Shown here: piece after piece, positions 54,821 to 63,667 of the stretch
Layout: the number at the start of each line of letters is the position of its first letter
Numbering within the stretch: the stretch's first letter is position 1
Origin: a virus
Length of the DNA stretch: 64,000 nt
Virus record (IMG/VR): IMGVR_UViG_3300042261_000588
Coordinates: 64,001 to 128,000 of that record
Strand: one strand, 5' to 3'
The notes under the pieces: generated by a model
Seen by the model: the letters and a program-made list of their open reading frames with translations, nothing else
Database searches by the model: none
Told to the model about the DNA's origin: nothing
Program-made: the position numbers and the translations under genes

Positions 54821-55060
54821 ATGGCAAATTTAAAAATATGTAGGAAGTGCAGTAATGGACTGGAGTTCTATCCTGCACTTCTTGATCATACTGATAAAAA
54901 AGTGTGCGGGACGCAGGTCTGGTGCATATTATCGGCTATATATATCGAATGGGATTCCGAGGTGCCAGAAAAATGCCCGTATCGGATGGAACATATTGTG
55001 TCTCAGGATGCCATTTCCGATCTTGCAGATGAATCAATAGAGATGAAGGAGTCAAAATGA
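54821..55060 (+). CDS. small Cys-rich protein
   Basis: CRKC..C..CPY..EH. Confidence 0.5.
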   Translation: MANLKICRKCSNGLEFYPALLDHTDKKVCGTQVWCILSAIYIEWDSEVPEKCPYRMEHIVSQDAISDLADESIEMKESK

Positions 55061-56235
55061 AGCCGAATTTTCAATTACAAGATATTGAAGTCTATATGGA
55101 TAATGCGGCGACAACAGCCATAGATGAAGAGGTTGTTTCAGCTATGAGACCATACTTAGAGGAGCGGTATGGCAATCCTGAGACTGTATATCGTCTTGGA
55201 AGGGAGTCGAGGAAAGCCGTCGAGGACTCTCGTGCGACTATCGCAGATATTCTGAAATGCACCCCAGAGGAGATATTCTTCACTTCTGGCGGCACCGAGG
55301 CGAATAACTGGGCTATCAAGGGCATTCGTCTTCAGGGATATGGAGGAATTATAGTCGGAGCCATCGAACATGCGTCTGTCTTAGAGCCTGCCAGCAGTGT
55401 TTTTGGAAAAGCAGATAAGAGAGCACTTTTTGAGATTCCGGTCGACTCATTCGGTCTTGTCGACTTGAATGCGCTTGAAACACACCTTCAAATGCCACAA
55501 GGGAAGCAGTGGCTCGTCTCCATTCAGTATGCCAATAACGAGATTGGGACAGTGCAGCCGGTTGAAAAGATCGCCGAGCTGTGCAAGAAGTATGGGGCAG
55601 TCTTCCATTGTGACGCAGTTCAGGCATTCGGGAAGATCGATTTCGACGTGGACGATGTGGGTGCGGACATGATTTCATTATCGGCACACAAGATTCACGG
55701 TCCGATGGGTATGGGCGCTCTCTACGTCAAGAAGGGCACCCTTCTTGAGCCTCTGTTACATGGGGGTGGACAGGAGAGGGGGATGAGGTCTGGAACGCTG
55801 GCAGTGCCAGAGATAGTGGGGTTTGCGAAGGCTGCGGAGCTGGCTATGGAAGTACTTCCAAAACAGATGCCGAGATTGATGCGTATTTCAGAGTGGTTGG
55901 CTGAGCAGTTGAGGCTTTCTAGTGACGGGAGACGTAACGGTCATACGACACAACGGCTTCCCAATATCGTGAGCATAACCTTTCCGGGAATAGAATCCGA
56001 GGTCGTCTGCGGGATCATGTGCTCGAAATACAAGTCATGTCTGTCGGCTGGATCGGCTTGCTCGACGACGAAGAGGCGTTCTCATGTCCTGGAAGCCATA
56101 GGGCGGGACCATCGTGATGTTCTGTCGACGCTGAGGATCAGTTTGAGTCGGTATAACTCGGATAGTGATGTGATGGTTGCCATGGGTCATATCCAAACAG
56201 CAATTAAACAATCGAAGGCAAGAGAGCTGATTTGA
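55057..56235 (+). CDS. iscS: cysteine desulfurase (NifS/IscS family)
   Basis: YMDNAATT, FTSGGTE, NNEIGT, HCDAVQ, SAHKIHGP, SAGSAC. Confidence 0.93.
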   Translation: MKPNFQLQDIEVYMDNAATTAIDEEVVSAMRPYLEERYGNPETVYRLGRESRKAVEDSRATIADILKCTPEEIFFTSGGTEANNWAIKGIRLQGYGGIIVGAIEHASVLEPASSVFGKADKRALFEIPVDSFGLVDLNALETHLQMPQGKQWLVSIQYANNEIGTVQPVEKIAELCKKYGAVFHCDAVQAFGKIDFDVDDVGADMISLSAHKIHGPMGMGALYVKKGTLLEPLLHGGGQERGMRSGTLAVPEIVGFAKAAELAMEVLPKQMPRLMRISEWLAEQLRLSSDGRRNGHTTQRLPNIVSITFPGIESEVVCGIMCSKYKSCLSAGSACSTTKRRSHVLEAIGRDHRDVLSTLRISLSRYNSDSDVMVAMGHIQTAIKQSKARELI

Positions 56236-56441
56236 AAAAGGTATCTAAGAAAGAAAAGCCTGTCGATATCAAGGAAGTGAATGTCGATGTTGGCGAACGT
56301 GATGATGTAGTGGTGGTGTCTTTCAATAAGGTGGTGTCATGGATAGGATTGGAACCAGTGCAGGCGATAAAGCTGGCGGAGAGCCTCAAAGCGTCAGCGG
56401 TGGGGATACTGAGAAGCACTCCGAAGTCTCAGAAAGACTGA
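56232..56441 (+). CDS. small hypothetical protein
   Basis: overlapping ORF. Confidence 0.5.
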   Translation: MKKVSKKEKPVDIKEVNVDVGERDDVVVVSFNKVVSWIGLEPVQAIKLAESLKASAVGILRSTPKSQKD

Positions 56442-56914
56442 TCTATCAGCGTGTGATCTGTGGAATATTCCTATTCTTGATCTGCATATCCTCAGTCATC
56501 GGTTTTGCAGCATCGAAGTTGTCTTGGTATTTTGCGATACCGTTTGGGATATTCGGTGGGTTGATCGGCATGTTCTTGGGGATAGGAATAGAATGGATAC
56601 GCTTAAGTATTGAAATCACGGATGTCAAAAAGGAACTCATCTTAGAAAGGATGATGAATGATGCCAAGTGTCGTAAGCAGACACGTAAAGCCGTTGATGA
56701 TGCAAGGCATGAGTATGTTAGTTTGGCTATCGAGTCAGCTAGGGTATTGGCAAACCGAGTGGCGAACAGGATCATCGCAAGACATGCCAGCCGGCTCCTC
56801 GAAGCTGAATATAGAGAGGCAACGATACAGGATACTGACGAGATTGTTGAGGATGAATTGAAGTCGTTGAAGCAGTCAATTCGGGACGAGTTTGATGCTG
56901 AAAAAAATATTTGA
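56339..56914 (+). CDS. membrane protein (two TM helices); true start probably near 56438
   Basis: two hydrophobic segments then a charged helix. Confidence 0.5.
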   Translation: MDRIGTSAGDKAGGEPQSVSGGDTEKHSEVSERLIYQRVICGIFLFLICISSVIGFAASKLSWYFAIPFGIFGGLIGMFLGIGIEWIRLSIEITDVKKELILERMMNDAKCRKQTRKAVDDARHEYVSLAIESARVLANRVANRIIARHASRLLEAEYREATIQDTDEIVEDELKSLKQSIRDEFDAEKNI

Positions 56915-56923
56915 AGATTTTTG

Positions 56924-56953
56924 TTGCAATGTTTCAGGCAGATGGAGTATAGT
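56924..56953 (+). promoter_or_regulatory. sigma70-like promoter
   Basis: TTGCAA-N18-TATAGT. Confidence 0.55.
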
Positions 56954-56995
56954 ATCTCTGTGCGGTAGAAAAGGCCGTAAGGAGTGGATGAGAAA

Positions 56996-57103
56996 ATGAG
57001 ACTGATACATACAGGTAAAGAGCAGAAGCCGATGGCAGGAGCGATTGAAGATCGCCCAGCCACGTGGTTTTCACTCTTTTCTGTCTTGTTCAATCAGGAT
57101 TAA
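56996..57103 (+). CDS. putative 35-aa leader peptide
   Basis: MRLIHTGKEQKPMAGAIEDRPATWFSLFSVLFNQD*; overlaps the 5' arm of a long hairpin. Confidence 0.5.
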   Translation: MRLIHTGKEQKPMAGAIEDRPATWFSLFSVLFNQD

Positions 57104-57141
57104 AGCAAGAAGAAGACAAGACAGAAAAGAGTGAAGACCGC
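57064..57141 (+). promoter_or_regulatory. 26-bp hairpin (candidate antiterminator)
   Basis: 57064..57089 pairs with 57116..57141 (24 Watson-Crick + 2 GU). Confidence 0.65.
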
Positions 57142-57165
57142 AGCCGAAAGGCAGGCGGTTTTTTT
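57136..57165 (+). terminator. intrinsic terminator
   Basis: GACCGC-A-GCC-GAAA-GGC-AG-GCGGTT plus T run. Confidence 0.75.
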
Positions 57166-57170
57166 ATTTT

Positions 57171-57198
57171 CCTTATTTTACTGATGAGTCGGTAATGT
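57171..57198 (+). promoter_or_regulatory. repeated promoter-like motif, copy 6
   Basis: CCTTATT-N12-CGGTAATGT with the same spacing as copies 1-5. Confidence 0.6.
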
Positions 57199-57487
57199 GG
57201 GGTATGTCGGGACGAGAACGACGAGCGATCATTGACAACTGAATATCGAAATGCGAAACAGCCACCCGGCTGTAGGCAGGTTGGAGCCATTTTGCGGACG
57301 AAGCCCTTCGGGGTTCGACGTTCGATGTGAGTGGATGACTGTAGCCGAAATGCGGGTGGTTGTCTTCGCTCCATACTGCCTTGGTTCTCGACTAGGGGCC
57401 GAATTTGATGTTCGGCGAACCCGCAGAGGGGGCGTAGTGTAGACTCAGCACTCGGTTGGGATTGCGAGGGTAGTACAGAGCGGAGAT

Positions 57488-57563
57488 GTCCCTATCTGCT
57501 AACTGGTGAGGCAATCAGATTCTCAATCTGATAATCCGGGTTCGAGTCCCGGTGGGGATGCCA
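57488..57563 (+). tRNA. tRNA-Glu(CUC)
   Basis: TCAGA-TTCTCAA-TCTGA anticodon arm, TTCGAGT T-loop, CCA. Confidence 0.85.
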
Positions 57564-57566
57564 ATA

Positions 57567-57863
57567 TAAGTATGGAGATGTGGGGCGAAGTCGGCAGCAG
57601 CGAAGCGGGTTTGGGCGTCTCATAAGAGTGATTGGAGACGATCCACCAAGAAGAAGTAGGATTTATGATCATGGGAATACGACTCGAAAAGTCGCCGGAC
57701 GGATAGGTGAATGTACAGCACCACAGTAAGTCTGGACTACCCATGATCGGATGGAGACACCTGCCAGATCAATGAAGTGTGAAAGCCGAGGGGCGGCCCG
57801 AACGGATAGTTCATGCAGAGATCAAGTGGTGTGGCTACCGGGGAGAAGCACCCGGCCTATTTA
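57567..57863 (+). ncRNA. long tRNA-mimic RNA X0 (tentative)
   Basis: end-pairing, CCGGG-8nt-CCCGG 3' arm, nested helices such as GATCATGGG/CCCATGATC. Confidence 0.4.
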
Positions 57864-57878
57864 TGAAATGACGGTGAT

Positions 57879-57954
57879 GCGAGTGTAGCTCAGTTGGTAG
57901 AGTAACTGACTCTTAATCAGTGGGTCGTCGGTTCAAATCCGTCCACTCGTACCA
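57879..57954 (+). tRNA. tRNA-Lys(CUU)
   Basis: cloverleaf, CTCTTAA loop, CCA. Confidence 0.9.
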
Positions 57955-58037
57955 GTTTACGGGCCTGAGTCTAGTGACAGTCCAGATGAATCATCCAGAT
58001 GACCGGAGAACTTACCTCCGGCGGGTCCATCAGTTTT

Positions 58038-58210
58038 TGAACAGCGGCGTGGAAAGCATAGCCCCTCGAAAGGTTATTAGAGACACGCTAGGTCAAGCAG
58101 GTCATGTGGCCGAAAGCTCCACACTGCCATAGTAGAGATGATGGCGAACGGTAGTAAGATGCTCGTACTCAGAGAGGTGGAGATAGCCGGGGTAGCGTCC
58201 GGCCTGTTCG
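58038..58210 (+). ncRNA. long tRNA-mimic RNA X1
   Basis: TGAACAG/CTGTTCG stem, GCGTG..AGACACGC arm, GCCGG-GGTAGCGT-CCGGC arm. Confidence 0.55.
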
Positions 58211-58532
58211 ATTCAGCTTGCAAGAGGTGAGCCGAGACCGTAGGCATACGGTAATCATTTACAAAAACCCTGATGAGTTGATGGCCTTCGGCCTGATGAG
58301 TTGATGGGTGTAAATGTTTGGCTGAGACCTACCGAGGATAGACGATACGTGGTGTATAGAGCACGCCCGAAGGGAGGATCAGGTTCGAGTCCTGAACGTT
58401 GGAACAATTTCTTGCTGCAAGGCAACAGTGAAATCCCTCATAACTTTTCAATTTCGTACTTGCGAGTCAGGCCACGATTCAATGCAGTGATGTACGACTG
58501 CGATAGTGGATAAACCAGACCGCCCAATTTTT

Positions 58533-58714
58533 AGGAGCAAGCAGCACGGGAGGCAGACGTGCCGACGAATGCCGCAGTAGAGCAAAGTCGGGTGGACGAA
58601 CATTGTCGAACCGGGAGCAGTAATGCAACCCGTGGATGTCCAAGGTAAAGCCCTTAGCGGGGTTGGAAGTAGGATGAACAGTCCGCTGATCGGGGTGGCG
58701 TCCGATCTGCTCCT
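58533..58714 (+). ncRNA. long tRNA-mimic RNA X2
   Basis: AGGAGCA/TGCTCCT stem, GCAC-GGGAGGCAGAC-GTGC arm, ATCGG-GGTGGCGT-CCGAT arm. Confidence 0.55.
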
Positions 58715-58722
58715 TTTTTTAT

Positions 58723-58800
58723 GTTGGCCGTAGCTCAATTTGGCAGAGCGTCTGATTGTGGGTCAGAATGTTGCGAGTTCAAACCTCGTCGGTCAACCCA
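58723..58800 (+). tRNA. tRNA-His(GUG)
   Basis: cloverleaf, TTGTGGG loop, C discriminator, CCA. Confidence 0.9.
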
Positions 58801-58809
58801 TAAGGAAAG

Positions 58810-58881
58810 CATGGCACACTTCAGCGTGATGGCTACTTCTACTTCTATGAAAAAAGCCTTTGTGCAATCATCGGTGCCATG
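58810..58881 (+). ncRNA. Y-RNA-like element 1 (no tRNA domain)
   Basis: CATGGCAC/GTGCCATG closing stem, ACTTCAG and TACTTC motifs. Confidence 0.55.
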
Positions 58882-58897
58882 TGATCCTTGCCATTCT

Positions 58898-59006
58898 GAA
58901 GGCACACCTCAGTTGAGGGATACTTCGTTTGTTCGATTCAAACCCTCGGCAGATGCCGGGGATGCCCTGTTGGTGGGCGTTTCTCTCAGCGATTATTGGT
59001 GCCTTT
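58898..59006 (+). ncRNA. YrlA-like Y RNA 2 (permuted tRNA domain)
   Basis: closing stem, TACTTC, T arm GTTTG-TTCGATT-CAAAC, looped acceptor, D arm GCCC..GGGC. Confidence 0.7.
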
Positions 59007-59018
59007 GATTTCACTTTT

Positions 59019-59161
59019 TCAGGTCACACTTCAGGGTAGGGATACTTCATTCCAACCGCTAATCGAGGTTCGATTCCTCGTCTCTCGACCATAACATCGG
59101 GAGATCGTCTAATGGCTAGGACAGCGGCACAAGACACCTTGCTCGCTTATTGGTGATCTGA
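59019..59161 (+). ncRNA. YrlA-like Y RNA 3 (permuted tRNA domain)
   Basis: TCAGGTCAC/GTGATCTGA stem, TACTTC, T arm CGAGG-TTCGATT-CCTCG, acceptor looped via CCATAACA, D arm. Confidence 0.75.
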
Positions 59162-59166
59162 TTTTC

Positions 59167-59243
59167 GGGCTCATAGCTCAGTTGGTTAGAGCACGGGACT
59201 CATAATCCCTTGGTCGCAGGTTCGAGTCTTGCTGAGCCCACCA
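59167..59243 (+). tRNA. tRNA with CAU anticodon (Ile2-like or Met)
   Basis: GGGCTCA acceptor, CTCATAA loop, CCA. Confidence 0.85.
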
Positions 59244-59249
59244 TCTTAT

Positions 59250-59325
59250 AGGCATGTAACTCAGTTGGTAGAGTGCAACTCTGATACGGTTGATGTACCT
59301 GGTTCAATTCCAGGCATGCCTACCA
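59250..59325 (+). tRNA. tRNA-Ile(GAU)
   Basis: cloverleaf, CTGATAC loop, CCA. Confidence 0.88.
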
Positions 59326-59385
59326 TGAATTCAAAAAGAAAGGACGGTGATTGCAATGAAATGCGATGGTAAACGAGTGTAAAGA

Positions 59386-59460
59386 GGATGCGTAGCTCAG
59401 AGGTAGAGCAGTTGGCTTTTAACCAACGGGTCGAGATTTCAAAATTCTCCGCATCCACCA
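59386..59460 (+). tRNA. tRNA-Lys(UUU)
   Basis: cloverleaf, CTTTTAA loop, CCA. Confidence 0.88.
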
Positions 59461-59473
59461 AAATAGATTTTCT

Positions 59474-59615
59474 GTGAGGCACACTTCAGCGAAGAGTTAC
59501 TTCAATGTTAATGACGTGGTTGTTGGTTCAACTCCAACCTCCGGAGTCGCAAGATTCCGGAGTAGCTCAATGGTAGAGCACGAAAATCTCTCTTCGCGTT
59601 TTTTTGGTGCCTCAC
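59474..59615 (+). ncRNA. YrlA-like Y RNA 4 (permuted tRNA domain)
   Basis: GTGAGGCAC/GTGCCTCAC stem, GCGAAGAG/CTCTTCGC stem, TACTTC, T arm, acceptor closed by GCAA, D arm GCTC-AATGGTA-GAGC. Confidence 0.78.
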
Positions 59616-59751
59616 GGACCTATTTCATTCTATTCTACGACAGGTTTACCGGAATTGCCTGTCGTAGTCTGCATACCCGGTTCAGCACCGGCTACCCGGA
59701 GGATGTGCCGCCAAGAAGCCAGTTTCCCGGAGTTCTGACAAACCGGGATTT

Positions 59752-59826
59752 GCCCCCGTCGTCTAGTGGCTAGGACGCTGGTTTTTCAAGCCGGAGAAGG
59801 CGGATCGATACCGCTCGGGGGTGCCA
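59752..59826 (+). tRNA. tRNA-Glu(UUC)
   Basis: cloverleaf, TTTTCAA loop, CCA. Confidence 0.88.
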
Positions 59827-59850
59827 ACTTCCAATGGAATGGTGTATAAT

Positions 59851-59927
59851 GTGCCTATAGCTCAATTGGACAGAGCACTTGACTACGGACGAGAAGGCGG
59901 CTGGTTCAAATCCAGTCAGGAGCACCA
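59851..59927 (+). tRNA. tRNA-Arg(ACG), degenerate
   Basis: good D and T arms, CTACGGA loop; acceptor and anticodon stems mispaired. Confidence 0.6.
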
Positions 59928-60066
59928 AGAAAGATTTTTTAATTTGGGGGGGTAAAGGGTTGGATGGATGCACGCCGCCCGAGCGGTCTGTCCAGTCTGC
60001 GTAAAGCAATCTGTCCGGTGCAGCGCCTCGTGGGCGTAGGATGGAAAAGTTGCTCCCTCCTTTTTT

Positions 60067-60141
60067 GGAGATGTGGCAGACCGGTAATGCGCCTGATTGT
60101 CTATCAGGTTTATGCGAGTTCAATTCTCGTCATCTTCGCCA
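60067..60141 (+). tRNA. tRNA-Asp(GUC)
   Basis: cloverleaf, TTGTCTA loop, CCA. Confidence 0.88.
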
Positions 60142-60248
60142 ACGCTTGTTCGGGATCAGGAGAAGCAGAAACCGCCTCTGTTCGTTAGGAGGGTAATCCC
60201 CCGATGCCAACTTGGATGTGTTCCATGGCAAGCATCTATTTCAGTTAT

Positions 60249-60334
60249 GCCGAGTTGGCTCAGCGGCGACAGCAACGGCTTCGTAAGTCGTCATGGTAAC
60301 TACATCGGGGGTTCGAGTCCCTCACTCGGCTCCA
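60249..60334 (+). tRNA. tRNA-Thr(CGU) with long variable arm
   Basis: GCCGAGT acceptor, TTCGTAA loop, U discriminator, CCA. Confidence 0.82.
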
Positions 60335-60466
60335 TGAAATATTTTTTCACATTTTACTGTGGGTCGAGTATAATATCTTGATCGGTATAGCAGCGAGCCA
60401 AAGTGGCTCCGATTAAGACGGTCATAGTTGGCCGTTGAATCGCTGAGGTAATTAGGAGAAGTTCAA

Positions 60467-60973
60467 ATGATTAGACGTGCAGTTGTGACGGTGTTGGCTG
60501 TTATGGGGCTGTGTCTTGCCGGATGCAAGATGTCGCCGAGTGAGATCAATGCGATGTCAGAAGCCTCTGGCGTAGCGGCAACGGTGATCTGGATGTCCTA
60601 TGACAATCCATCAGTCGAGCAGAAAACTGAAGTCGCCAATGTTCTTGGCGTCGTAACGGAGAACATCGGAATTGTCGGGACAAATTCGTATACTTCCGTG
60701 TTCATGCCGAAGGTTATGGCGTATGTTGTTGCCAGTCAGGATATTCCGGCCAATGACAAGCCCATTGTCATCGCTGGGTCGCTGGCAGTTTTCGGAGGTA
60801 TTGACCTGTTGTTTGCAAGTCATCCTGAATGGAAGGAAGACACGCAGAATGTCGGGTCGTATGTCAAGTCATTCATTACTGGCGTACAGCTCTCTCTGGC
60901 TTTGCCGGCAACGGACTCGAAGGTTATGAAGGCAACCGAGAATTACAAGGCACGCTCAGCACTCAAGAAGTAA
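60467..60973 (+). CDS. putative lipoprotein
   Basis: SD AGGAG; signal peptide with LAGC. Confidence 0.75.
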   Translation: MIRRAVVTVLAVMGLCLAGCKMSPSEINAMSEASGVAATVIWMSYDNPSVEQKTEVANVLGVVTENIGIVGTNSYTSVFMPKVMAYVVASQDIPANDKPIVIAGSLAVFGGIDLLFASHPEWKEDTQNVGSYVKSFITGVQLSLALPATDSKVMKATENYKARSALKK

Positions 60974-60996
60974 GATAAGTATCAGCGTGGTTCTTG

Positions 60997-61030
60997 AAGG
61001 GGCGTTTCGATGAAGAGTCGGACGCCTCTT
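60997..61030 (+). terminator. hairpin after the lipoprotein gene
   Basis: AAGGGGCGTT..GACGCCTCTT. Confidence 0.45.
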
Positions 61031-61038
61031 GTATTTAT

Positions 61039-61125
61039 GCCAACGTGACCTGAATTGGTAAAGGCCCTGATTTGTAATCAGGTAGTTCCGAAAGGATCGT
61101 GCAGGTTCGATGCCTGTCGTTGGCT
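61039..61125 (+). tRNA. tRNA-Thr(UGU) with long variable arm
   Basis: GCCAACG acceptor, TTTGTAA loop, TCC-GAAA-GGA variable stem; no encoded CCA. Confidence 0.82.
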
Positions 61126-61363
61126 CGGGAAGCAAAGTTGGGGCACCTCTACGTGGTGCTGACTAGAAACAGCAGGAGTGCTGGCTAAGACCCCAATCGA
61201 AGGTTGATGATGGTAAGGAACCTCATAGCCTTTTATTCTTTGAAATAGGTGAATGTCGAGACATCAATGAGGCAGAGTTCGATGCTTTGTTCAAGACAGG
61301 CTTGTGCTTTGCGGTTGTCATTATTCTGAATGGATGCTAATTTTGCAGGGAGGAACAAGAAGT

Positions 61364-61439
61364 AGGCGTGTGGTCCAATTGGTCGGGCACCGGTCTCCAA
61401 AACCGGACTATGTGGGTTCGAGTCCCGCCACACCTGCCA
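61364..61439 (+). tRNA. tRNA-Trp(CCA)
   Basis: cloverleaf, CTCCAAA loop, CCA. Confidence 0.88.
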
Positions 61440-61522
61440 AAACCAGAGAGGTGGATTCGACTTCCGCTCACCATGCCAATCTGATCCGCAAAAAAATCTG
61501 AAGAAAAATCTACAATTTTTGT

Positions 61523-61552
61523 TTGACTTATCCCGTTGATTTGGTGTAATAT
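61523..61552 (+). promoter_or_regulatory. sigma70-like promoter
   Basis: TTGACT-N18-TAATAT. Confidence 0.45.
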
Positions 61553-61887
61553 GGACTGGAATGATGAGTCATGGAAGAGTTGTAAAATGATCAGAACTTC
61601 AAATCACTGGAAGTTGGTTGTCGGCTAGAGCGCTTTCAGCTTGCGGAAAACAAGTCAGGAGTCTATAGTTCCTGATGTTCAAAAGTCTCATAGAATAAAA
61701 ATCTATGAAAAGGCAACTGAGTAGAAATTTTTGGATTTATAGGTCAGTGGCAGAGGGAAAATGCACGGGTATGCCCGGTCTCAGGGTTCGGTTAGTGGGC
61801 GAGCTGATCTCTGAGTGAAAGATACCAATCTTTCCTGACCTATTAATCTTGTTGTGAAAACATTGTCTTGCCGGAGTATAATGAGAC

Positions 61888-62226
61888 ATGAATACTAAAA
61901 AAGGCAACGGGATTGAAGAACTCTGGAAACAAACGAAGAAGAAAATTCGTATGGATCAGGTTCACACAGAAATTGATCACAAGGTTCTTGCCGCTGGTGA
62001 TCTCTGTCAGGTCGTCCTTTACAATGACGATCATCATACAAGCTCTCATGTGGTAAAGTCTTTGATTGCGATTTTTCAACATTCACAGGCAATAGCTGAG
62101 AAGATCATGCTCGATGCTCATAATTCTGGACGGTCGGTTGCCGAGGTTGAGGATTATGAGAAGGCAGTTGAACATGCCAAGCAATTAGCTGAGGCTGGTT
62201 TGAAAGCAGAAGTAGAGTCGTTTTAA
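61888..62226 (+). CDS. clpS: ClpS-like N-degron adaptor
   Basis: VVLYNDDHHT..VV..L..F..AEKIMLDAH..GRSV. Confidence 0.85.
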   Translation: MNTKKGNGIEELWKQTKKKIRMDQVHTEIDHKVLAAGDLCQVVLYNDDHHTSSHVVKSLIAIFQHSQAIAEKIMLDAHNSGRSVAEVEDYEKAVEHAKQLAEAGLKAEVESF

Positions 62227-62367
62227 GCAAAACTGTAACAAGCCAAAGATAAAGTGCGACAACGCTGATAACTGCGCAGGCAAACAAGAAAAGTAGGAGA
62301 AGTAATGGAAGCACACTAGTTGGCGAAGTTGTTATTGGACAATTAATCTCGAATGAAGAGTAATTTT

Positions 62368-62443
62368 GGGGCTATAGCACAATTGGTAATGCGGCAGCTT
62401 TGCAAGCTGTTCGGTACGAGTTCAAGTCTCGTTAGCTCCACCA
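62368..62443 (+). tRNA. tRNA-Ala(UGC)
   Basis: G3:U70, TTTGCAA loop, CCA. Confidence 0.9.
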
Positions 62444-62483
62444 AAAATTCGGGAGTGTTGGACCTTGTTGCGTCCGACTACCC

Positions 62484-62765
62484 ATGAACACAACAACCGC
62501 CAGCGGGCGGAAAGGAGCGCCTATGCGCATGTCCTCACGAAAAGGCCAGACGATGGTCGAGTACATCATCATTGTCGTCGTGATTGCCATCACCCTGATC
62601 TTGCTCTTCTCCAATTTGGGCAAGGCCATTGGCAAGAAGGTCACCGGCGCGACAGCCGCCATAGACCAAGAGGTCGGTGAGGCGGCGGCGGCGACGTATG
62701 ACACCCTGAGCGCCAATCCGGTTCGGGATTTAAATGCAGACGGGACGATGGTTGGCACGCCCTAA
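62484..62765 (+). CDS. flp: Flp/Tad-type pilin
   Basis: RKG/QTMVEY followed by a hydrophobic helix; GC-rich. Confidence 0.82.
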   Translation: MNTTTASGRKGAPMRMSSRKGQTMVEYIIIVVVIAITLILLFSNLGKAIGKKVTGATAAIDQEVGEAAAATYDTLSANPVRDLNADGTMVGTP

Positions 62766-62931
62766 GCGGGAACGGGCACCATGGCAAGGGTGGCGATCAG
62801 GGCTCGTGATGCGCGTCGCCTCCGGTGCAGTAGTGGGCATTACACAAATTTGTTAGGCTTACAGAGAAGATATGGCGCGTAGCCGCGCCGATGTTCACCG
62901 CCGACGATAATCATCAAAAAGGAGAAGAAGT

Positions 62932-63345
62932 ATGAAGATTGGGTTTATGTCTTTGTTTTTCGTGTTTGTTGCAGGATGTGCCACTGGACCCTACACGCCG
63001 ATTCGGACATCGAGTTTGAAGGGAGAAAAAGTCATTTATTTCGAGCAGGTAGATCGGGTCCCGAAAGACGTATTGATGCTCTTGTGTGAGAAAAAGGATG
63101 ACGGCACTATGAGTGCGAGAGTCATGCCTTGGATTGAACTTATCCCGATGATCGAGAAGCTGTCGGATGTCGCCCCAGAGATCGTCACTTCGTATAGCCA
63201 AGAGAGAATGGAAAACGCCATGATCACAAGGAGAATGCTGTTTCGTGGATATGATGGCACGAATGACTTGGTGGAGATCGAGAGGATCATAAAGACGATG
63301 GGTGGAAACATCGAGAATTGGTCTGCGAAGAAGGACAAGCCGTGA
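62932..63345 (+). CDS. putative lipoprotein
   Basis: SD AAGGAG; VAGC lipobox. Confidence 0.65.
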   Translation: MKIGFMSLFFVFVAGCATGPYTPIRTSSLKGEKVIYFEQVDRVPKDVLMLLCEKKDDGTMSARVMPWIELIPMIEKLSDVAPEIVTSYSQERMENAMITRRMLFRGYDGTNDLVEIERIIKTMGGNIENWSAKKDKP

Positions 63346-63500
63346 GAAAGCCTAGACTGACAGAGGACATCGCTCGTGGCATTATGGGTTGGATGAGCTT
63401 CGGCAGATATTGCTGCTGACTCTGATCGTCTTGCGGTAGATATGGAAGTTATCACAGAAGTTTGAACGCAACCCAGTGTCGTGGAGTGAAAAGTAATTTT

Positions 63501-63576
63501 GGCGGGTTAGCTCAGTTGGTAGAGCAATGGAATCATAATCCGTGCGTCGGGGGTTCGAACCCCTCATCCGCCACCA
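63501..63576 (+). tRNA. tRNA-Met(CAU), elongator
   Basis: GGCGGGT acceptor, ATCATAA loop, CCA. Confidence 0.88.
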
Positions 63577-63589
63577 TGTTTAATTATGA

Positions 63590-63667
63590 CGGTAAGTAGT
63601 TCAGTCTGCTTAGAACGCTCGGTTTGGGTCCGAGAGGCCGTGGGTTGAAATCCCACCTTACCGACCA
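63590..63667 (+). tRNA. tRNA-Pro(UGG)
   Basis: CGGTAAG acceptor, TTTGGGT loop, CCA. Confidence 0.85.

Follow-up and report, generated by a model that had tools for sequence, protein, structure and literature searches.

Background

Ribosome-mediated attenuation is textbook knowledge for amino-acid and pyrimidine operons, and leader-peptide attenuators are known for amino-acid operons both in the form of trpL, hisL, pheL and leuL and in the multivalent form of thrL and ilvGMEDA. Anticodon nucleases classically attack the host tRNAs for Lys, Glu and Gln. Where defence systems cut or deplete host tRNAs, phage-encoded tRNAs take their place, as described for PARIS (PMC11464382) and for retron effectors (PMC11555353), and Lys is among the known targets of such tRNA-cleaving defence (PMC11464382, PMC11555353); in these two papers we found no demand-sensing control of phage tRNA genes. 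In Anabaena sp. PCC 7120, according to the sections of the respective reports available to us, the trn operon is normally silent and is induced under translational stress (PMC8421152), and the tRNA array is under the control of the transcriptional repressor TrcR (PMC10272220); neither a leader peptide nor a terminator switch is described for this array in those sections of the two reports. A full-text search of the literature returned no account of the attenuation of tRNA genes, either in phages or elsewhere.

Here we describe a module placed before a phage tRNA/ncRNA array, which is conserved, is translated, and has an RNA architecture of the attenuator type. On balance, the module probably operates as a ribosome-mediated leader-peptide transcription attenuator resembling those of the trp, his and phe operons.

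Results

Genomic setting and relatives

The window, by which we mean the whole 64-kb stretch of DNA that was analysed, comprises bases 64001-128000 of a 143.9-kb IMG/VR virus record, which is ~67% complete. The source is an uncultivated giant phage from freshwater, and almost all of its genes lie on the + strand. The features of the locus are collected in Table 1. The array behind the leader module begins with tRNA genes for Glu-CUC, Lys-CUU, His, Met, Ile, Lys-UUU and Glu-UUC, continues with an odd tRNA-like gene, and then with Asp; the whole contig carries 23 tRNA or tRNA-like genes and a tmRNA.

Table 1. Features of the leader module and of its surroundings (positions in the window)
Feature	Position	Strand	Remarks
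Class-V aminotransferase (NifS/IscS-like cysteine desulfurase)	55057-56235		Pfam E = 5.5e-74; upstream of the leader module
191-aa protein, function unassigned	56339-56914		Between the aminotransferase gene and the leader module
Sigma-70-like promoter (TTGCAA, 18 nt, TATAGT)	56924-56953	+	Transcription start expected near 56960
5' UTR stem-loop, then Shine-Dalgarno AAGGAG (56979-56984)	56958-56984	+	RNA folding
Leader ORF, 35 codons + TAA	56996-57103	+	ATG at 56996; TAA at 57101-57103
Region 1, codons 6-12 (T G K E Q K P)	57011-57031	+	5' strand of H1
P1, apical hairpin of H1, codons 13-23	57033-57062	+	Predicted in all four lineages
Region 2, shared strand (codons W F S L F S V)	57064-57084	+	Pairs with region 1 or region 3
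P2, predicted antiterminator hairpin	57064-57141	+	Arms 57064-57092 / 57113-57141; 27-29 bp; stop codon in the loop
Intrinsic terminator	57135-57165	+	Stem 57135-57141 / 57155-57161; GCC-GAAA-GGC tip; U-run 57159-65
Phage-type promoter (CCTTATT, 13 nt, GGTAATGT)	57171-57198	+	Start of the tRNA/ncRNA array unit
tRNA array	57488-63667	+	15 tRNAs in the window; runs on past the window end

The same gene order was found on the IMG/VR contig L003 and on five JGI metagenome contigs (L006-L010), and together they represent four DNA lineages: the window with L006 and L007; L008; L003, which is equivalent to L009; and L010. Between these lineages the 191-aa neighbour is only 36-49% identical, and despite its divergence the promoter, the ATG, the length of the ORF, the hairpins and the terminator have all been kept. 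Glu-CUC and Lys-CUU open the array in every lineage, with His and Ile coming next, and Lys-UUU, Glu-UUC and Asp are located further along wherever the loci extend that far. Eight further homologues of the 191-aa upstream protein exist.

Searches of GenBank phages with the DNA, with the leader peptide and with the 191-aa protein yielded no match, and scans of IMG/VR with the upstream protein, the hairpin arm and back-translated peptide motifs returned only L003 besides the window record. The conserved block behind the terminator, used as a query, had at least 119 matches, which look like chance; the only one to pass a two-motif screen, L101, belongs to an unrelated high-GC phage. The three matches from a scan of genome contigs lay within unrelated coding regions, and were likewise set aside as chance. 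Rfam cis-regulatory families produced no hit at threshold between positions 56900 and 57260, and identity with a T-box, a riboswitch or a catalogued leader was rejected for this reason; the look-alikes below threshold in this interval were miRNA precursors, Phe_leader and DnaX.

Promoter and 5' UTR of the leader

The sigma-70-like promoter of the original prediction (TTGCAA and TATAGT, separated by 18 nt) is present at 56924-56953 and conserved in all four lineages. The consensus match alone is unremarkable, as 12 such promoter sites were found and 9.2 were expected. Across the four lineages, TTG, GTATAGT and the 18-nt spacing are invariant, and the sequence of the spacer has been rewritten; such a combination of invariant elements with a changing spacer represents a phylogenetic footprint. 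This promoter type occurs only twice in the contig, and its second, near-identical copy at genome position 1511 is followed directly by a 21-bp perfect hairpin and then by tRNA-Met.

The AAGGAG sequence is located 11 nt before the leader ATG, and purine-rich sequences resembling a Shine-Dalgarno site are found 8-14 nt before the ATG in all lineages. A transcript initiated at this promoter would measure ~205 nt up to the terminator, and the entire element is compact, at ~240 nt.

Leader ORF and peptide

The 35-codon ORF proposed earlier was confirmed, and proved to be conserved and to bear a coding signature. Its ATG is aligned in all four lineages, and all four of the indels within it are multiples of three, which is not true of those that fall in the 5' UTR, in the loop of the hairpin or in its 3' arm. 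The 4-fold degenerate sites are identical in none of five ORF codons, as compared with 8 of 103 in the flanking genes. Together, the in-frame indels and the free variation at 4-fold sites indicate that the leader ORF is translated.

Nineteen residues of the peptide are invariant, and its identity between lineages (71-75%) exceeds that of the neighbouring proteins. All lineages have kept a hydrophobic block just before the stop codon, encoded on region 2. When 1.8 billion proteins were searched with a profile, the L010-type peptide was recovered together with three new members of 34-35 aa (P0016, P0019 and P0020), which come from other metagenomes, one of them on a 318-kb contig, so that the length of the peptide is 34-35 aa in all seven sequences. 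The same search also matched TPR repeats of large kinases, which we regard as look-alikes and a curiosity. The peptide has no match among Pfam families, and no paralogue of the leader was found elsewhere in the contig.

Conserved codons of 2- or 3-fold degeneracy are identical across lineages in nine of nine cases in the leader; for the flanking genes the figure is 36 of 104 (P = 1.5e-4). The nine frozen codons specify His, Lys, Glu, Gln, Lys, Ile, Glu, Asp and Phe. Base pairing was rejected as the full cause of the frozen 2-fold codons (7:4 versus 3:4, P = 0.63), and so was codon preference, since Lys and Glu are each encoded by both of their codons, the minor AAA and GAA among them.

Alternative RNA structures

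Region 1 is predicted to pair with region 2 in a long and imperfect hairpin, H1, with P1 as its tip. H1 is the minimum-energy fold of the segment from the ATG to the end of the P2 5' arm in all four lineages, with z-scores of -4.85, -2.86, -3.05 and -4.88. Region 1 includes a 14-nt block which is invariant in all lineages, and its Lys-Glu-Gln-Lys codons are invariant too. As region 1 never varies, none of the 21 pairs of H1 is compensatory, and the support for H1 is purely thermodynamic.

The second hairpin, P2, had been predicted as a 26-bp structure with its 5' arm inside the ORF. No inverted repeat in the window comes near the length of the underlying one (57066-57089 / 57116-57139), and P2 indeed folds as 27 bp in the 221-nt leader (z = -7.5) and reaches 29 bp in RNA that lacks the 3' strand of the terminator. 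For P2 together with the terminator, z ranges from -2.5 to -7.8 across lineages. The duplex is perfect in the window lineage, and contains internal loops and bulges in L008, L003 and L010. At the base of P2, the window has UCAC paired to GUGA, and the other lineages have a UCGC-type strand paired to CGAG or GCGA, differences which, judging from the aligned sequences, are compensatory changes. Thus, the covariation that was to be looked for in relatives is found at the base of P2, and is missing from H1.

Since region 2 is common to H1 and P2, the leader has the predicted layout of 1:2 (H1), 2:3 (P2) and 3:4 (terminator) pairings. Neither the upstream 1:2 hairpin nor the conservation of the peptide was part of the original prediction.

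The intrinsic terminator (-15.3 kcal/mol, with a run of seven U) was missed by a simple terminator scan because its stem is bulged. Terminators are located at the equivalent place in L008, L003 and L010, with stem sequences unrelated to each other, i.e. the stems co-vary as wholes, and their occurrence at the same place is good evidence that termination there has been selected. The sequence AGACCGC at 57135-57141 can pair either with 57064-57070 in P2 or with 57155-57161 in the terminator. The proposed mutual exclusion therefore holds at the base of the terminator, and in its 29-bp form P2 takes in the whole outer 5' strand. In all four lineages, RNA devoid of the terminator 3' strand is predicted to have its terminator 5' strand bound to region 2. 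Some of the occlusion in the window lineage is due to pairing of the terminator 3' strand with 57050-57056, which form the 3' strand of P1.

Across the four lineages, 24-33 nt separate the stop codon from the terminator stem. This is close to or past the limit of ~27 nt beyond which, in E. coli, a terminator is no longer repressed by a ribosome at the stop codon (PMC4824070), and, by comparison with this limit, a terminating ribosome would block P2 and not the terminator.

A phage-type promoter behind the terminator

There are 18 copies of the octamer GGTAATGT on the + strand, 15 of them between genes, and a single copy on the - strand. Most of its copies are embedded in a 30-nt consensus comprising a T-rich stretch and CCTTATT 13 nt upstream, and the consensus copies lie 4-60 nt before ORFs; by its distribution, the motif is evidently the main promoter type of the phage. 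The copy at 57171-57198 has been kept after the leader terminator in all lineages. The original prediction had also placed a second promoter-like motif, which could bypass the control, downstream of the terminator. The TTGACA near 57233, which the promoter scan did not call, was rejected as such a bypass promoter, as it lacks a -10 partner and the block of conservation around it is longer than the hexamer; a promoter downstream of the terminator is nevertheless present, in the form of the much better candidate at 57171-57198, which had not been named.

With a promoter of its own, the array does not depend on read-through, on which the genes behind a classical attenuator rely, and the leader can only add transcription, which would presumably come from the sigma-70-like promoter. 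A terminator followed by a promoter is also found at junctions between ordinary genes of this genome, and a plain small gene with its own terminator therefore stays a serious rival.

Modelling of the proposed switch

The equilibrium probability of the terminator core was computed for three states of the ribosome (Table 2). In the equilibrium model, a switch is predicted for just two of the three deep lineages: in L003 and L010, a terminator is predicted whatever the state of the ribosome. Accordingly, the polarity originally proposed, in which a ribosome covering the 5' arm of P2 allows termination and a failure of translation prevents it, is reproduced by the model in the window and L008, and is not reproduced in L003 and L010.

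Table 2. Predicted probability of the terminator core at equilibrium, by ribosome state
Sequence	No ribosome	A site on Lys-Glu-Gln-Lys	Ribosome at stop
Window	0.02	0.01-0.08	0.94
L007	0.00	0.00-0.01	0.99
L008	0.18	0.04-0.13	0.93
L003	0.53	0.79-0.91	0.89
L010	0.91	0.90-0.91	0.94

When the upstream 95-108 nt were shuffled, occlusion at the native level was reached in 0.7-1% of the trials for the window and in 8% for L008; the same control revealed no effect in L003 or L010. Stepwise folding of the window sequence, which corresponds to the co-transcriptional check suggested earlier, agreed with the proposal: H1 forms first, P2 displaces it with the polymerase at ~57137-57153, and no terminator is formed at the end. 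Barriers along the direct path from H1 to P2 are 3-13 kcal/mol in the window and ~20 kcal/mol in L010, where H1 would consequently persist unless opened by a ribosome. It should be kept in mind that four of the seven terminator-like sites compared within the genome, the leader terminator included, look occluded at equilibrium; the equilibrium measure is thus not specific, and the specific evidence is the shared strand.

Composition of the leader peptide

The readability of leader codons was judged from the tRNAs found in the contig, with codons in long ORFs as the baseline; because the contig is incomplete, further tRNAs may exist. Phage tRNAs can read 19 of the 23 codons before region 2, including one run of 14, as compared with 53% genome-wide, and two of the 11 codons from region 2 onward. 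In terms of residues, those with a phage tRNA number 22 of 23 before region 2, against 66.5% genome-wide (P = 0.001), and two of 11 from region 2 on (P = 0.0014), with both values to be read as post hoc: the split point was chosen after the structure had been seen, and the composition tests were designed after the data had been seen. L008 has a phage tRNA for 21 of 25 residues before region 2 (P = 0.04). The upstream enrichment is significant in the window and L008 only, and not in L003 or L010, and depletion from region 2 onward is found in all four lineages. All twelve of the invariant residues before region 2 are served by phage tRNAs.

This composition is suggestive of tRNA sensing. The original prediction held that the leader senses damage to translation and answers with spare tRNAs, and we infer that it may do so, with some support from codon composition. 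In a more specific and rather doubtful version, the leader, whose codons before the hairpin are frozen and start with Lys, Glu, Gln and Lys, would act as a multivalent gauge of the phage's own tRNAs, and read-through by host RNA polymerase into the replacement tRNAs in the first minutes after infection, before the phage promoters come into play, would amount to demand-driven counter-defence.

Discussion

In the attenuator model, a ribosome that reaches the stop codon in the P2 loop would keep region 2 from region 3, which is the 3' arm of P2 ending in the outer 5' strand of the terminator. With region 2 held, the terminator would form by pairing with region 4 (the terminator 3' strand and the U-run), and transcription would end at 57165. 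Without a ribosome, or with one that arrives late or stalls on region 1, regions 2 and 3 would pair, the 5' strand of the terminator would be sequestered, and RNA polymerase would continue into the array. The trigger may be slow decoding of the codons ahead of region 2, since that stretch consists almost wholly of amino acids for which the phage has tRNAs; it opens with codons that would be read by the first tRNAs of the array. Through the leader, the array would be transcribed early and according to demand, in addition to its transcription from the phage-type promoter.

The peptide is conserved more strongly than a passive leader requires, which counts against an attenuator. Being better conserved than its neighbours, and constant at 34-35 aa in seven sequences, it could also be the product of a stand-alone small-protein gene acting in trans, with the array transcribed solely from the promoter at 57171-57198. 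The hairpins would then stabilise the mRNA, or arise as by-products of a pyrimidine-rich coding stretch and its purine-rich neighbours. Such a gene would agree with the terminator being followed by a GGTAATGT-type promoter, as at an ordinary gene junction, and with the terminator of L003 and L010 being predicted regardless of the ribosome. It does not, however, explain why two long and mutually exclusive hairpins share one strand of the ORF in all lineages, or why P2 always extends into the 5' strand of the terminator though the terminator sequences differ, and it leaves the split in composition at region 2 unaccounted for. Moreover, no other hairpin of the size of P2 occurs in the window, and the searches of Pfam, of the genome for a paralogue and of GenBank phages have given a putative small protein no relatives there. 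On this evidence we hold a small gene to be rather unlikely.

Selection on the peptide itself, as seen in its 19 invariant residues combined with synonymous 4-fold variation, would likewise be expected of an arrest peptide, in which the nascent chain stalls the ribosome on a small molecule or factor, and the stall, not the supply of tRNAs, sets the fold. The conserved hydrophobic block before the stop codon, lying on the shared strand in all lineages, is in line with such a sensor. Against it, no known arrest motif was identified in the peptide and no Pfam family matches it, and the overlapping constraints of H1, P1 and P2 could explain part of the conservation; we find it improbable that the leader works in this manner.

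A processing or regulatory RNA, be it a site at which RNase III would trim read-through transcripts or degrade the leader mRNA, or a dual-function small RNA of ~205 nt, is very improbable, for even though the window lineage has a perfect duplex of more than 20 bp, the other copy of the sigma-70-like promoter also precedes a 21-bp perfect hairpin and then a tRNA, and the invariant purine block of region 1 reads as four A-R-N triplets, which we take to resemble the Hfq distal-face motif, the duplex of L008, L003 and L010 is interrupted by internal loops and bulges, and no Rfam family was matched at threshold.

If the attenuator model is correct, phages would be able to gauge decoding capacity directly and to supply tRNAs on demand, which would explain the economical expression of large tRNA arrays and would provide a mechanistic link between these arrays and the host defences that cut or deplete tRNAs.

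The leader shares with the leaders of amino-acid operons a promoter-proximal translated ORF, an arrangement of pairing regions predicted as 1:2, 2:3 and 3:4, and a terminator before the genes under control, and the position of the ribosome is predicted to choose between antiterminator and terminator, as it does in those leaders. It differs from them in several respects: the genes behind it are tRNAs and tRNA-like RNAs rather than biosynthetic enzymes; it has a stretch of mixed amino acids instead of a run of a single regulatory codon; its stop codon is located past region 2, in the loop of the antiterminator; its peptide sequence is conserved; and a promoter that serves the controlled genes themselves follows the terminator directly. 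The Rfam model Phe_leader (RF01859), which consists of a long hairpin and an adjacent terminator, aligns with the leader over its full length (model positions 1-125) at 31.3 bits, and since the gathering score is 55, this represents a likeness of design to Phe_leader and not membership.

The Anabaena array is the closest functional parallel that we found in print; as far as the available sections of its description go, it is likewise an accessory tRNA array, and its expression responds to impaired translation; it differs from the phage array in being carried on a cellular megaplasmid and placed under a repressor protein (PMC8421152, PMC10272220). In pyrBI-type attenuation, folding of the terminator depends on where the leading ribosome stands with respect to RNA polymerase, as would be the case here, but the polarity is the opposite: there, a closely following ribosome prevents termination (PMC4824070), whereas in the phage leader translation is predicted to promote it.

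Promoter motifs

A 30-nt motif, made up of a T-rich stretch, CCTTATT, 13 nt and GGTAATGT, is strand-specific in the genome, with 18 copies on the plus strand and a single one on the minus strand. The majority of the copies are found 4-60 nt upstream of ORFs, often with a terminator immediately before. It probably represents the main promoter class of this phage. The sigma-70-like promoter of the leader has a near-identical second copy elsewhere in the genome, and this copy is followed by a 21-bp perfect hairpin, tRNA-Met and a terminator, in that order; the spacers of the two copies are about 70% identical within the genome, and the spacer varies between lineages. Additional promoter-like sites lie inside the tRNA array, which is probably transcribed as several units.

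Coordinates of promoters, genes and RNA features (G000:C1, contig of the whole genome; L101, unrelated phage contig)
Feature	Coordinates	Remarks
Cysteine desulfurase gene	window 55057-56235	two genes 5′ of the tRNA array
Leader peptide, conserved core	window 57017-57055	codons 8-20
Leader 2- and 3-fold codons	window 57008-57079	
30-nt motif with GGTAATGT	window 4956, 5588, 6505, 7827, 9467, 37104, 49155, 57191	ten further sites in the genome
Conserved 24-nt block	window 57228-57251	
Block-like core	L101, about 1860 and 2098	minus strand
YrlA match	window 59489-59600	
Sigma-70-like sites in the array	window 60346-60374 and 61854-61882	
tRNA-Thr	window 61039-61126	
RF02682 match	window 61127-61197	
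Third promoter-like site	window 61641-61669	TTG / 17 nt / TATAGT type; between tRNA-Trp and tRNA-Ala
Phage-encoded tmRNA	G000:C1 1079-1486	outside the window, locus 1079-1870
Second copy of leader promoter	G000:C1 1511-1540	after the tmRNA
tRNA-Met	G000:C1 1746-1822	

Leader peptide and its codons

All nine of the conserved 2- and 3-fold codons in the leader are codon-identical in the four lineages; the 4-fold sites drift. Neither predicted pairing nor codon preference accounts for these frozen codons. The conserved core of the peptide is similar to the TPR repeat consensus QKDLAGAIEDY of large Ser/Thr-kinase-like proteins, matching seven to eight repeats in each of two such proteins (P0017 and P0018), a likeness which may be due to chance or may be a remnant of the origin of the ORF. 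The NifS/IscS-like cysteine desulfurase gene located 5′ of the array is conserved in synteny in all lineages. Enzymes of this type serve as sulfur donors for tRNA thiolation, including that at position 34 of Lys, Glu and Gln tRNAs, and there may be a link between the desulfurase neighbour and the leader's Lys-Glu-Gln-Lys block.

RNA elements of the array

About 30 nt 3′ of the phage-type promoter at the head of the array lies a 24-nt block that is near-invariant in all four lineages and has no second copy in the genome. This block may mark where a non-coding RNA starts, or may act as a signal for RNA processing. A similar core adjoins tRNA-like genes in the unrelated high-GC phage L101, recovered in a scan whose hits look like chance. 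Two matches to known RNA families, both sub-threshold, fall within the array: one to the Y RNA-like YrlA (33.6 bits vs 69), and the other, at 29.4 bits vs 44, to RF02682, the F. prausnitzii HDV-like ribozyme. The latter begins at the nucleotide adjoining the 3′ end of tRNA-Thr and could be a 3′-processing ribozyme.
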